Shown: in pieces, positions 58,038 to 64,000 of the stretch | Numbering within the stretch: position 1 is the first letter of the stretch | Layout: every line of letters begins with the position of its first letter | NCBI RefSeq assembly: GCF_000026545.1 | Contig: NC_011603.1 | Reading direction: 5' to 3' (one strand) | DNA from: Escherichia coli O127:H6 str. E2348/69 | GTDB lineage: Bacteria > Pseudomonadota > Gammaproteobacteria > Enterobacterales > Enterobacteriaceae | DNA length: 64,000 nt | Position numbers: made by a program

Positions 58038-61000
58038 TCATTTCAATAAACCGGGCGACCTCAACCATCCCTTCCTGATTTTCCACTTTCCAGCGTTCGG
58101 CACGCAGACGACGGGCTTCATTCTGCATGGTTGTGCTTACCAGACCGGAGATATTGACATCATATGCCTTGAGCAATTGATAGCTGTCGCTGTCAACTGT
58201 CACTGTAATACGCTGCTTCATAGCACACCTCTTTTTGACATACTTCGGGTATGCATATAAGTATATATTATTATGATGCAAAAATCAGCGCGTAAATACA
58301 CATACTGTTATCTTACTTTTAGTAAGCCTTATTTATTTTACCTTGCGTTATGTTAACCAATAAAAATCAAAATCTGACTTATAAAAACAAACCGTAATTA
58401 TCGCATTCCCGTTTCCGTCAGATCCGACTTTCATGAATATCACAACTTTCCGGAAGTGTACCACGCTGTGAAAATCATCATATCACTGTTTTCCGCCCCT
58501 GCGCGGCGCATCATAGGTCAGGGAGATGACACAATATATAGTGTCATTAGCAGCTAAATTAAGCACTACATGTTGTGCTGACGGGAGATGGCGCTGTGCG
58601 GCGAGAGAGGAAGATCCGTGACTGACAGAAATCGGATCTATGAGAGAAGATAATGGTATATTTGCTTATTATGCAATTAAAAATAACTATTATTGCCATA
58701 TTTGCACTATTGCTATAAATGCACTAATAATAAGGTTCTATTGCCAAAAACAATCATCTGGAGATATTTGCCATTCACTCTCATCCATAACCTGTTAAAA
58801 GCGGCTCGGGTTCAGATCAATTATTTATTAACCGGTGATGGATAAAATGAAACCGGAACGAGATATCCCTAATATAAATGAAATTATGCGTAGCCTTCGG
58901 GCATTCATCAGCGACTGAATAAAGGTATCAAGGAATGTATCCCGTATTTGAGAATGGCTCATGCTGGGTCAAGGTCGATTTTCACCTTCATACCCGTGCA
59001 GACAAAGAATTTCGCTATGCCGGCGAATCCGACAGATATATTCGCGATTACGTCAATGCCCTCAAAGCGGCGGAAGTGAGCGTGGGCGTGATCACCAATC
59101 ACAATAAATTCGATCCCGGCGAGTTTAAAGTATTGCGGAAAGCCGCGCGCCGTGAAGGTATGGACCTGCTTCCCGGCGTGGAGCTGTCCGTTAATGATGG
59201 CCAGGCCGGCGTGCACACGCTCGTGGTGTTTGCTGATGAGTGGTTTATCAATCCACAGCAGACGAACCATATTGAAAGTTTCCTTACGGCCACGTTTGCG
59301 GGCGTTGATAATTTTGAGAATGAAAATGCCCGTTCAACAGAAAATATCACACAGACCATCCAGCGCCTTGACCGGTATGAAAGGGATTACTTCATTGTAT
59401 TTGCTCACGTGGAGGCCCAAAACGGGTTATGGGGCGGGCTGAGCCCAGGCCGGATCGGGGAGCTTTTTGATAATGACCTTGTCCGCCGGCGCGTGACGGG
59501 ATTTCAGAAGGTGATGACCCACGACCTGCGGGTCAAAATTAAGGACGTGCTCGGTGAGCGCTATCCTGCCGAAGTCCAGGGATGCGATGCCAAAACGCTG
59601 GATCACATTGGTGCCAGAAAAGTCGCCAGCTATCTGAAGCTGGGGGATTACAGTTTTGAAGCCGTCCGCTTTGCGCTGCAGGATTTTCCGCATCGCGTCA
59701 GCGGAGAGAAACCGGCCCTGACCCACAGCCATATCCGCCAGATAGCATTCGAGGGCGCCGGTTCGCTCGGTGGAACCGTGGTGAAATTATCTCCAGAACT
59801 GAACACCCTGATAGGGATCCGCGGCAGCGGCAAATCCTCCATCCTTGAAGGGATCCGATATGCCCTGGACATTCCGTTTGGCGAGAAGGCCTCTGACCGC
59901 GACTACAAAGAAAATCTGGTCAGTAATTTACTGAAAAGCGGAGGGAAAATTACCGTTGATGCCGTGTGCCGTCACGGACGGGCCTATCAGATAGTTCGCA
60001 TTTTCGGTCAGGAGCCGCAGGTCATTTTTGACGGCCAGGTCCGGCACGGGGTGGCGCTACGGGAAACGGTTCTGCATAAGCCAGTGTATTTTGGCCAGAA
60101 AGATCTGTCCAATACCGGTGCCGGATTTGAACACGATCTGATAGAAAAACTGGTCGGTGAGCGTCTGGCTCCCGTACGAGAGAAAATCCGGCAGCAGAAT
60201 GCGGTCGTGCTCGACAGGTTAGTCCAGCTTCGCCGTCTGAAAACATCGGGAGAAGCGCTCTCCGAATGGCAGGCGAAAGAGAAGGATGCGCAGTTCCGCC
60301 TGCGCTTCTATGCCCAGCATGGCATGGAAGAAAAACTGGAGCGTCAGACCACCTTCGGGCGGGATGAGCGCTATCTCAGCAGCAGCACTTCCCTGGCAAG
60401 CCGAGCGCTGGACAGTCTGCAGGACGGAATCAGGGAGACTCTGGACGGGCTGAAACAGGAGCAGAAACATGAGTCAGCACATAACCAGGCGGATATTGAT
60501 GATTATCGTGAGGGATATGACCGCTTTACGACTCATCTCAGCTCCCTGAACACCATTGTCGACGGTGCCCGCCAGATCCTAGATGAGCTCAACGTTAAGC
60601 AGCAGGCCTTCCTGCAGAAAAAGCAGGCGCTGACGGAGGAATTTGCCGAAATAGAACGTGGCCTTGCAGAAGAGCTGCGGCTAGCCGGGGTGGAAAAAGC
60701 AGATCCCGCCGACTTCCTGAAGCTGAAAGCCGGGCTGGAAGTTGCGGAACAAAAAATAGCCGAGTTGACCCGGGCTGAAAGCAGCCAGACGTTACTGGAG
60801 AAGAGTCTGACAGAAGCGCTAAACCGATTGTCTGAACTGTGGGTGGAAGAGTATCAGGAAATTGAAGCCGTGCTGGCTGCCATCAACCAGGCAGATTCGC
60901 CCCTGAAGATCGTGCCGTCCTTTGCGAGCGATAAAAAAGCCATGCTGGCCGTTCTGAAAGAAGCCTGTACTGGCAGCCGGTTGAGGGAAAGTACCTACCA

Positions 61001-64000
61001 GACCGTGGTTGACAGCTTCAGTAACTTTGGCGAGCTCTGGCTGAACAGGGATAAACTCCCCGGGATTATCAATAGCTCTGCGGAGACGTTCAGCATGTAT
61101 CTGGAGCAGCAGATAGAATCGCTTATTGTCTGGCAGATCCCGAATACCTACATCATTGAATTCCGGGGCAAACCACTGGAACAACACTCATTGGGTCAAC
61201 GCGCATCCGCATTAATGCTGTTTGTCCTGAATCAGCAGGACAATGATGTGGTGATCATCGATCAACCCGAAGACGACCTGGACAATCAGACGATTTATGA
61301 CGACGTGATTAAAATCATCAGGGCGATGAAACCCCGCACGCAATTTATCTTTGCCACTCACAATGCCAATATTCCGGTGCTCGGAGATGCAGAAAATGTC
61401 TGTGCCTGTGAATATTCAGACGGAAAGATCCAGATTGTCGGCGGAGGCGTGGATGCCCCTCTTGTACAACAGCACATTATTTCGGTAATGGAAGGAGGGC
61501 GGGAAGCCTTCGAGCGACGCAGGGAAGTTTACGGCTCATGGCTCAGTAAAACCTGATACCATCATGCTTACTGAGCATACAGAAAAAGCCGCAAATGCGG
61601 CTTTTTAATTTTCTGATTATACCTTTTTTGGTTCTTCGATGGAAAAGAAAGAAATTACACAGGCCTGACATATCCATATGCCAGACATCTTCACATTCAA
61701 AGCATATGCATATACTGAGCATAGCCATACAGGCCGCCCGGTCAGGGGGAAATAATGAGAACTGTATCCATTTTTAAAAACGGCAATAACCGCGCCATCC
61801 ATCTGCCCCGCGATTTGGATTTTGAGCGGGTGAGAGAGCTGGAGATCGTCCGCGAAGGAGACAGCATCATCCTGCGTCCCGTCCAGCCGAACTGGGGCTC
61901 ATTCGCGCAGCTCGAAAAAGCCGATCCGGATTTTATGGCGGAGCGCGAGAATGTTGTCAGCGACGAAGGTCGATTTGACCTGTGAACAAAACGTATATGC
62001 TCGACACCTGTATCTGCTCGTTCATCATGCGCAAGCAGCCGGAAACTGTGCTGAAGCGCCTTGAGCAGGCGGCGTGTTTAGTCACCGCATTGTGGTCTCG
62101 GCCATTACTTACTCTGAAATGCGCTTCGGTGCCTCCGGTCCGAAGGCCTCCCCGCGTCACGTGCAACTGGTTGATAAATTCTGCCCGTGCCTCGATGCCA
62201 TCCTGTCTTGGGACCGCGCCGCGGTGGACGGCACCACGGATATTAAAGTGGCACTGCGCCAGGCCGGGACGCCGATCGGCCAGAACGATACGGCGATTGC
62301 CGGGCCTGAAGCTGGAAAACTGGGTAAATTAACATCGCCCACACTCTGAAGGACGTGGGTTCCGGCTTAAACAGGCGGACTGACTGCCCCAATCCTCCAC
62401 ACGCAAGCACGGCATGCCCCGCCGCTAAAATGTTACGAGCGCCGTTTACATCGGCATTCGCTGTATGACCACAGCCAGCACCTGACCACCACGCCAGAGC
62501 TGCTTATACTCAAGCTGGCAGCGCATTTCATACCAGCCCTGATCCAGTATCGAACGGTTTAAATCTGATTTTTATTCGTCATTTACTTCGAACAATACTT
62601 CAATAGATTTTGTCGGGTAGAAGAGCGAATCACAGTTTTCTTCCTTTAACTGTATAAAACCCAGTCGAAGGTAGAATTTTTTGGCGTTATCGTTCAGCGC
62701 CTCCACGAACATTCCGTGTATACCCACAGCCTGCGAGGCCTGATACACGACTTTCATCGCATGGGTAACAAGTGTTTCTCCATATCCCTGGTGATGAATG
62801 CTTTTATCAATTGCCAGACGGCCCAAAATCACGCTCGGCACATTTTTGTAGGGCACACGCTTTTGTTGTGTTTTGCTGGGGAGAAGTATTTTCTCAAAGC
62901 AACTGCCTGACAGGGTGTAGTACCCCATGACACGTGGTCTATCCTCTCTCGTCACGAGCAGATAACCCCGTAAAACCTTACTACTGTGCTGACGTTGCAG
63001 ATGATCGGTGAGAAAAGTATTCAGATACTCTTCTCCACAATCGAAGTTGCTTAATTGATATTCAACTTCCTCTGAAAAAATCTCAATCCTTAAACCGTCC
63101 ATTTATTACTCCAGTTCCCGGAGACGGTTAGTGGCGCGTTTCAGCCGGTCATTTGGTGCTGGCGGATTAGTGATTGCATCCATAACCAGATTCCAGGACT
63201 CCTCATTGAGGAGCAGGCGACGGTGCTGATCAATAACTTCAGCAGCACGTGCTGAGGCGGTACTGACCATGAACTGCGAAATGGACTGGTTAGTCATTGC
63301 TGCAGCTTCTTCGATCATGTGTTTGTCGTCTTCATTTAATCTCAGATCGATGCGCTGCTTCTTCAGTGCTGACATGGTTTTTCTCCCTGACCACTCTTAA
63401 TTCTGAAAGAACGGTCAGCTTTGTTAAGTTCGGGCCTTAAGGCGATAACATTTATCCAGGCCGGTCATGGTGATACTTTGATAGTGAGTACGGAAAAATA
63501 CCGTACAAACATAATAGAGTTATGGTATGCAGGTTTCAACCACAAGTTGGTTATGAATCCGGGTATAGCACGTAAAGGTATAGTGAGAAGACTCTCGACG
63601 CTAATCTGAGCAGGCTCAGACTATCTTTGGCGGGTCTGATCTTAAGAAGTCATTATTAAACTGCACTACGTAACCACCGTATTATGGATCTGCGAGCAAT
63701 TCAGGTACGGCATACTCTACATTGAGGGCTGAACCATCAGTGCTCGCCGCAGTCCGGTGACCGGGCTAAAGCCCGCGAACCGGCGAGGAAGCGCAATAAC
63801 ACAGAAGCTGAAGGAAGCAGGTACGCACTGTAGTCGCGGCAAGTGATCACTGAAGAACTATCTGAATTGCCTTGCTGCTCAGCAGGTTATCCACATATAC
63901 ATTCATTCGATCCAGCAATAAGATCCTTAAAGCGATCCCTGTAAGATCCAAAGAAGATCCCGACATCTCTGAAGGCCGCGCCAGCACTGAGCCTGGAGCA

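Follow-up and report, generated by a model that had tools for sequence, protein, structure and literature searches.

A stand-alone TrlF/Ppl-family gene in the maintenance region of the IncF plasmid pMAR7, a probable defense cargo

Ppl is reportedly described by Gao et al. (2020) as a single-gene antiphage system, and a paper by Xu et al. (2026; Mol Cell 86:180), an earlier form of whose title names T7 gp5.3, is said to be the primary account of its mechanism. A homologue of Ppl, a gene of the TrlF family, is found at positions 58935 to 61556 of the DNA analyzed here, the last 64 kb of the Escherichia coli plasmid pMAR7 (64,000 nucleotides, referred to below as the window). In 2024, Ppl was still an uncharacterized single-gene antiphage system (PMC11482910). 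An earlier note on the window knew of no mechanism for this class; one has since been published and is summarized in a 2026 review, according to which Ppl is a single-stranded DNA (ssDNA) 3'-5' exonuclease that requires two signals (PMC12904381). Nucleoside triphosphates (NTPs) on the PHP and NTPase domains inhibit the enzyme, and this inhibition is relieved when phage infection depletes nucleotides; the second signal is the 3'-OH ends produced by a phage homing endonuclease (PMC12904381). The name TrlF goes back to the temperature restriction locus trlR-trlF-trlG of Photorhabdus laumondii, in which growth arrest at 36°C is relieved by mutations in trlG, never in trlF, and TrlF was given no function (PMC7554251).

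The window was placed by coordinate offset on pMAR7, the adherence factor plasmid (IncFIA/FIB/FIC) of enteropathogenic E. coli (EPEC), and positions 58282 to 61760, queried against pMAR7, show 100% identity. The RefSeq product on pMAR7, WP_000283686.1, is the identical protein and is labeled "TrlF family AAA-like ATPase." The gene probably encodes a stand-alone PHP-nuclease/ABC-ATPase of the TrlF/Ppl family, carried as dispensable defense cargo in the maintenance region of an IncF plasmid and acting as an NTP-gated exonuclease like Ppl. In this mechanism, the Rad50/SMC-like head would bind NTP, and NTP binding would keep the N-terminal PHP nuclease off. An invader that lowers the NTP pools and makes free 3'-OH ends of DNA would release the PHP domain, which would then degrade DNA in the 3'-to-5' direction and stop replication of the invader. 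The polarity and substrate of the nuclease, the gating by NTP, the trigger, and the protective phenotype are predicted features of the pMAR7 protein.

Domain architecture and family placement

The open reading frame (ORF) of 873 residues is real, and each of the motifs listed in the earlier note is found at its place: VDFHLHT at residues 14-20, NHN at 55-57, FAHVE at 156-160, GIRGSGKSS at 294-302, LGQRASAL at 753-760, VVIIDQPEDDLD at 772-783, and ATHNAN at 807-812. The pairing of a PHP domain with a Rad50/SMC-type ABC domain, proposed from these motifs, is borne out by an alignment of 86 relatives with 26 to 93% identity, by an AlphaFold2 (AF2) model with a predicted local distance difference test score (pLDDT) of 91.1, and by fold matches to SMC/Rad50 heads and PHP nucleases. 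The gene and its domains are as follows.

58935-61556, plus strand: trlF-family gene, 873 residues, PHP nuclease fused to an ABC ATPase, without a TrlG partner (ORF, profiles, AF2, hhalign)
58935-59720, plus strand: PHP metal-dependent phosphoesterase/nuclease domain, residues 1-262
59721-60125, plus strand: N-lobe of the ABC-ATPase head, residues 263-397, with Walker A G294-S301 and Q-loop Q388
60126-60890, plus strand: helical arm, residues 398-652, with a turn around residues 511-517 (AF2 secondary structure)
60891-61124, plus strand: small alpha/beta-plus-helical insert between arm and C-lobe, residues 653-730 (AF2)
61125-61553, plus strand: C-lobe of the ABC-ATPase head, residues 731-873 (alignment of relatives)

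The PHP ligand positions are D15, H17, H19, H56, E83, H94, H158, and D218; the columns D15, H17, H19, E83, H94, H158, and D218 are invariant among the 86 relatives. In the ABC head, the invariant columns are G294, G297, and K300 of Walker A, Q388, S752, G754, and Q755 of the signature (S752-L-G-Q755), the Walker B residue D776, and H809 of the H-loop. Walker B continues with the invariant Q777-P-E779, and the C-lobe carries a family-specific C-terminal motif, M852-E-G-G-x-x-A-F...R862, which is likewise invariant. Pfam matches are weak, with independent E values of 0.15 for PHP, 0.003 for SMC_N, and 7.7e-4 for AAA_21, and no TOPRIM domain was detected in the protein with Pfam. The coiled-coil-like middle of about 250 residues noted previously corresponds to the helical arm of ∼255 residues in the AF2 model, whose profile aligns with the coiled coils of SMC5/6 and SMC3. 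The arm contains no Cys, as read from the sequence, and thus has no zinc hook. Sequence and profile searches found no solved structure of Ppl or of a TrlF protein.

The residue following the Walker B Asp is Gln in Ppl as well as in each of the 86 relatives (D-Q-P-E; residues 772-783 correspond to window positions 61248-61283). A comparison of the C-lobe with PDB sequences returned engineered, hydrolysis-dead E-to-Q trap mutants of AriA and of the ABCF protein ExpZ as the top matches. The AriA entry 8v46 reads IDQPE, the wild-type entries 8v45 and 8ux9 read IDEPE, and ExpZ reads LDQPT. Because Q777 aligns with the Glu of wild-type AriA and with the Gln of the trap mutants, it occupies the position of the catalytic Glu. 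E-to-Q mutants of ABC ATPases bind ATP and engage but barely hydrolyze it. The replacement of the catalytic Glu by an invariant Gln points to an ABC head that is probably an NTP-binding switch or sensor with poor hydrolysis, not a motor, and the family-wide occurrence of this Gln would give a simple account of the head as a sensor of the NTP level.

The NCBIfam TrlF model NF045780 matches residues 7-867 over its full length (positions 1-944 of 944) with 540.7 bits, above the cutoff of 350. The family-invariant DQPE and MEGGxxAF motifs, the N-terminal PHP domain, and the C-terminal split ABC ATPase are all present. Authentic Ppl from an IncFIA plasmid reaches 1330 bits on its own model and 477 bits, over the full length, on the TrlF model; since it passes the latter too, the TrlF model describes an umbrella family that includes Ppl as one of its branches. 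In BLASTP, the pMAR7 protein and Ppl align at the ends only, with 26% and 33% identity, and the middle is not alignable. Profile comparison of the TrlF alignment with Ppl by hhalign, on the other hand, gives a probability of 100% and an E value of 1.4e-49 over 816 columns with ∼20% identity, residues 9-860 pairing with Ppl 2-887. As judged from this alignment, the two proteins are full-length homologues of one architecture. They have in common D15, H17, H19, H56, E83, H94, H158, and D218, Walker A, the Q-loop, the S-x-G-Q signature, DQPE, the H-loop, and MEGGxxAF. The single predicted difference in catalytic residues lies at the last PHP ligand, where Ppl has His and the pMAR7 protein has Lys. 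NCBIfam models for Rad50 and SMC proteins score only 14 to 24 bits against cutoffs of 567 to 1000, and the PADLOC models of GajA, AriA, and PtuA match segments of the P-loop or C-lobe only.

An intermediate between TrlF and Ppl, a protein of 917 residues, is encoded on a Raoultella IncFIA/FII plasmid (L008:5989-8742), beside a Type II restriction-modification pair. Its scores are similar on the two models, 640 bits for TrlF and 626 bits for Ppl, so the TrlF/Ppl family forms a continuum.

Several observations weigh against a Ppl-like defense nuclease that acts alone. The protein falls below the cutoff of the Ppl equivalog NF042955, with 159.8 bits in two stretches compared to the required 1000. 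Its best PADLOC match is the Ppl model PDLC02208 (E value of 3.4e-36; 122.7 bits), but the match covers two terminal stretches only, and identity to Ppl is just ∼20 to 28%. The Ppl-like assignment of the earlier note stands as far as full-length homology, solo occurrence, and relatives in defense islands are concerned; membership in Ppl proper does not, the protein belonging to the TrlF branch. Residue 220 is Lys in the pMAR7 protein and in 70 of the 86 TrlF members and His in Ppl, and because this is the last canonical PHP ligand, the metal site, the substrate, or the polarity of TrlF could differ from that of Ppl. A scan of species-representative genomes yielded 80 loci with 37 to 90% identity. 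Among the 68 loci with enough downstream sequence, 57 show a TrlG start between -15 and +48 nucleotides (nt) from the TrlF stop, so that most relatives carry TrlG and possibly need it. The growth arrest at 36°C, which is the sole phenotype of the Photorhabdus locus, maps to trlG rather than to trlF (PMC7554251). Finally, a literature search turned up no test of TrlF or trlFG in defense.

Solo and partnered TrlF

The frequency of the pair raises the question of whether the pMAR7 gene is the orphaned half of a two-gene trlF-trlG system that is inactive alone or dependent on a partner elsewhere in the host. TrlG follows TrlF with an overlap of 3 to 15 nt, indicative of translational coupling, at those 57 loci, which are spread over many phyla. 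In Photorhabdus and Vibrio cholerae, for example, TrlG, which comprises SLFN_AlbA_2 and HATPase_c_4 domains, overlaps the TrlF stop codon. The only published phenotype of a trl locus, as described above, also maps to trlG. The single-gene class named in the earlier note therefore applies to the solo gene on pMAR7 but not to its branch, which normally consists of two genes.

Against these points, neither trlR nor trlG nor remnants of them gave a tblastn match anywhere in the window. The pMAR7 gene is part of a monophyletic, all-solo enterobacterial clade with 53 to 100% identity in a neighbor-joining tree without bootstrap, and the sister of this clade is a gammaproteobacterial trlFG clade. The members include Citrobacter (53%), Mixta and Yersinia (59%), Rahnella (75%), and Serratia, Klebsiella, and Dickeya (∼90%). 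A whole clade has thus diverged down to 53% identity while remaining solo. The ratio of nonsynonymous to synonymous substitution rates (dN/dS) within it is 0.12 to 0.15, and every domain is constrained, with values of 0.04 to 0.18. Of the E. coli copies, 118 of 124 are full length. Only 11 diagnostic substitutions, mostly conservative, separate the clade from partnered TrlFs, and a remodeling of the solo proteins was rejected on this basis. A second solo clade is present in the tree, the branches nearest to Ppl are also solo, and both Ppl and the basal branches function without a partner. The orphan explanation is accordingly considered unlikely. The single-gene state is derived in the enterobacterial solo clade, where TrlG is an add-on that was lost. 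TrlF behaves as an autonomous unit, and the purifying selection suggests that it functions alone. No conserved neighbor gene was found across the solo clade.

The partnered loci are of interest in their own right. The trlF-trlG module is present in Proteobacteria, Bacteroidota, Bacillota, Planctomycetota, Spirochaetota, and Chloroflexota. TrlR (HTH_73) was found by tblastn at 2 of 71 loci. Type I restriction-modification (R-M) genes lie beside ∼7 of 36 trlFG loci in a single-query tblastn search; an obligatory linkage of trlFG to Type I R-M was ruled out with this low number. In V. cholerae, the trlF-trlG pair interrupts a Type I R-M operon, with hsdS on one side and hsdR on the other. The widespread pair looks like an unrecognized two-gene defense system, and if it is one, the temperature restriction phenotype of Photorhabdus could be its autoimmunity.

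The same locus offers a further explanation for the pMAR7 gene, namely a conditional growth-arrest or addiction module. The protein shows 56% identity with Photorhabdus TrlF, and the gene is surrounded by the toxin-antitoxin genes ccdAB and vapBC and a GNAT/DUF1778 pair. In Photorhabdus, however, every suppressor mutation was located in trlG, with trlF unaffected, and the window contains neither trlG nor trlR. The host, EPEC E2348/69, is a human enteropathogen and a human-derived isolate, from which pMAR7 would be compatible with growth at 37°C. An addiction module is therefore regarded as most improbable.

The cassette, its flanks, and its distribution

The cassette is flanked by ccdBA to the left and by vapB with a frameshifted vapC to the right, in agreement with the previously proposed location between ccdAB and vagCD. 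Its features and flanks are as follows.

57696-58221, minus strand: left flank, ccdB at 57696-58001 and ccdA at 58003-58221, outside the cassette
58396-58934, plus strand: leader traveling with trlF; BLAST homology starts at 58396 in Serratia pQC11_3 and at 58413 in Klebsiella pWW14A
58741-58768, plus strand: candidate sigma-70 promoter, TTGCCA-16-GATATT, consensus match of 9/12
58847-58918, plus strand: possible upstream ORF (uORF) of 23 codons, MKPERDIPNINEIMRSLRAFISD, read from the sequence
61583-61606, plus strand: intrinsic terminator AAAAAGCCGC-AAAT-GCGGCTTTTT with a 10-bp stem, kept in the Klebsiella and Serratia copies
61755-62349, plus strand: right flank, vapB/vagC at 61755-61985 and frameshifted vapC/vagD (61982-62332 and 62074-62349), outside the cassette

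The gap 5' of the ORF measures 653 to 713 bp, depending on the choice of the ccdA start, and has a GC content of 0.38 compared to 0.53 for the trlF ORF. The AT-rich leader of 650 bp described earlier is thus present as a gap, but just the part from ∼58396 to 58934 travels with the gene, and constraint is limited to its last ∼140 bp. In the distal part, leader identity is 69 to 73% compared to 71 to 73% at four-fold degenerate sites, i.e., close to a neutral rate, while the last ∼140 bp (58796-58934) is 80 to 98% identical. This constraint is confined to the clade with at least 89% identity and does not extend to the relatives in Rahnella (75%) and Yersinia (59%). No Rfam match with an E value of <0.1 was obtained for the leader, and no stable RNA fold was found in its proximal part, the fold being weaker than that of shuffled sequence (z = +2.0). 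A riboswitch or small RNA in the leader was rejected on these grounds together with the narrow conservation. The proximal leader is more likely to comprise promoter, operator, and 5' untranslated region than a structured RNA. The sigma-70 candidate adds weak evidence since such sites are as frequent in the region as expected from shuffled sequence. The uORF (MKPERDIPNINEIMRSLRAFISD) stops 16 nt 5' of the trlF ATG, inside the conserved proximal leader. The frame is kept in 4 of 5 close relatives and broken by a frameshift in Klebsiella pWW14A; it shows many nonsynonymous differences, and a role as a leader peptide is uncertain. The terminator that had been assigned to the gene was found as the hairpin with the 10-bp stem. 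It forms the right end of the cassette, and homology to other backbones stops ∼15 nt beyond it.

The flanks belong to the plasmid maintenance region. On the left, the order is resD-ccdB-ccdA, all on the minus strand. On the right, two overlapping ORFs cover positions 1-26 and 29-101 of the VapC model and reveal the frameshift in vapC (vagD), while vapB is intact. A GNAT acetyltransferase and DUF1778 pair, similar to the TacT/TacA toxin-antitoxin, is located just past vapBC at 62572-63375 on the minus strand. With ccdAB, vapBC, and this pair, the region from 57696 to 63375 can be described as a run of toxin-antitoxin modules into which the trlF cassette is inserted. Elsewhere in the window, at 49605-51908, a gadC-like glutamine/GABA antiporter gene and a murI glutamate racemase gene adjoin an IS1-family element according to RefSeq annotation only; these genes are an unusual metabolic cargo on an IncF plasmid.

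Of 5,426 complete E. coli genomes, 124 carry trlF, always on plasmids and never on the chromosome. At least 99% identity is seen for 112 of these copies, a few are truncated or interrupted by insertion sequences, and most of the carrier plasmids are conjugative. The cassette (∼58396-61621) is also found on an IncFII/IncR Klebsiella plasmid and an MPF_I Serratia plasmid with unrelated backbones. Phage carriage of trlF was rejected, a full-length homologue being found in just two unannotated Listeria "phage" records.

Relatives of the gene lie in defense islands. The chromosomal Dickeya copy (93% identity) is located beside a complete Lamassu system (LmuA/LmuC/LmuB) and the TIR candidate system PDC-S35, while the copy in Yersinia has Hachiman HamA on one side and PDC-S49 on the other. 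In Citrobacter, the neighbor is a SIR2 protein of 1038 residues, and a more distant copy on a Raoultella IncF plasmid adjoins a Type II R-M pair. The island on the Dickeya zeae chromosome (L010:6752-10132), which contains Lamassu, the TIR gene, and an integrase, has the cassette together with the downstream vapB junction in common with the IncF plasmid. This shared junction suggests an exchange between plasmid and chromosome.

In 11 PLSDB plasmids, ccdA and vapB are close together without trlF. One of these, a Klebsiella pneumoniae IncFIA/FII plasmid (L097:1051-2813), was compared with positions 57600-62305; it is 98.7% identical to 57600-58623 and lacks the sequence from 58624 to ∼61640. The vapC gene is intact in this plasmid. 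A naive empty site preceding insertion was rejected because the ccdA-vapB plasmids without the gene still hold the distal leader; its retention at 98.7% identity marks them as derivatives of a deletion of ∼3 kb. Since trlF was lost in otherwise near-identical plasmids, the gene is dispensable for plasmid maintenance.

This loss bears on the explanation as an enzyme for DNA repair or end processing that, like a fused counterpart of SbcCD/Mre11-Rad50, would aid plasmid replication or recombination. The combination of a nuclease with a Rad50-like ABC head and a coiled-coil arm parallels that of Mre11-Rad50/SbcCD, and the top fold matches include Rad50 and SbcC. The gene is nevertheless patchy and accessory, being found on none of the 5,426 E. 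coli chromosomes and deleted from near-identical plasmids, and the arm without Cys leaves no room for a zinc hook. A housekeeping family of the RecN/SbcC type or a conserved repair partner, which the earlier note had set against its own proposal, was looked for, and none was found; the neighbors are defense genes, and the Vibrio copy is embedded in a Type I R-M operon. A repair enzyme is very unlikely for these reasons.

The plasmid-only distribution in E. coli, mostly on conjugative carriers, would also fit an antiplasmid or interelement competition factor, a nuclease sensing 3' ends and directed against the incoming conjugative or rolling-circle ssDNA of rivals. The location in the maintenance region beside ccdAB and resD agrees with this, as do the reported Ppl substrate, ssDNA with a 3'-OH end, and the restriction of plasmids by the SMC-like Wadjet and Lamassu, whose heads are structural neighbors of the trlF product. 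The biochemistry would be the same as that of the Ppl-like defense nuclease. The chromosomal relatives, however, lie in typical phage defense islands, and the validated homologue Ppl is defined by phage protection, so this role appears rather improbable. Also improbable is a broader proposal in which the TrlF branch is a defense family of its own with a trigger or substrate unlike that of Ppl. The Lys-for-His and E-to-Q exchanges would then be adaptations, the solo plasmid form would act mainly on ssDNA with 3' ends from conjugative or rolling-circle elements that enter the cell (plasmid-versus-plasmid exclusion), and trlF-trlG would be an unrecognized defense system with the Photorhabdus phenotype as its autoimmunity.

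Comparison with known systems

The curated family annotation, the architecture, and a published mechanism for the homologue Ppl are already known, and no new principle is involved. Modestly new are the identification of the plasmid clade as a TrlG-less branch of a mostly two-gene family and the natural, family-wide E-to-Q exchange in Walker B. If the cassette protects, ∼2% of complete E. coli genomes hold an uncatalogued Ppl-type defense gene on conjugative IncF plasmids. Among the carriers are pMAR7, the EPEC virulence plasmid, and plasmids of clinical E. coli isolates from humans, which would make such a gene relevant to phage therapy and plasmid ecology. The link between solo TrlF, Ppl, and trlF-trlG also leads to a testable rereading of the Photorhabdus temperature restriction locus as a defense system.

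Lamassu LmuB and Wadjet JetC are structural neighbors of the trlF product, with an SMC-like head and a coiled coil sensing DNA ends or topology. LmuB and JetC are absent from its best 25 PADLOC matches. In contrast to the single chain of pMAR7, both systems are multisubunit, have longer arms, and place the effector and kleisin-like functions on separate proteins. Gabija GajA, PARIS AriA, and retron PtuA (OLD-family and related proteins) resemble the trlF product in the use of an ABC ATPase of the AAA_15/AAA_21 type to gate an antiphage nuclease and give weak hidden Markov model and fold matches. Their nucleases are TOPRIM or HNH domains, located C-terminally or on a partner, and the catalytic Glu is kept (IDEPE in wild-type AriA), whereas the trlF product has an N-terminal PHP nuclease and IDQPE.

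Mre11-Rad50/SbcCD, which act at DNA ends, likewise combine a metal-dependent nuclease with a Rad50-type ABC head and a coiled coil and are among the top structural matches of the head. Contrary to these enzymes, the nuclease of the trlF product is a PHP domain instead of the calcineurin-like fold of Mre11 and is fused in cis; the arm is short (∼255 residues) without a zinc hook, Walker B carries Gln, and the gene is accessory and mobile. Photorhabdus TrlF is 56% identical over the full length and belongs to the same NCBIfam family. It is flanked by TrlR (HTH_73) and overlaps TrlG, while both are absent from the pMAR7 window, where the next gene is vapB.

Ppl remains the closest described system. 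Like the trlF product, it is a single chain of ∼870 to 890 residues in which a PHP domain at the N terminus is followed by a C-terminal Rad50/SMC-like ABC NTPase interrupted by a helical arm, and it also occurs solo on IncF plasmids. The pMAR7 gene corresponds to Ppl as a single gene with its own leader and terminator and without a conserved neighbor. It differs from Ppl by an identity of only ∼20 to 28%, by Lys in place of the last PHP His, and by its affiliation with a branch that is mostly paired with TrlG.

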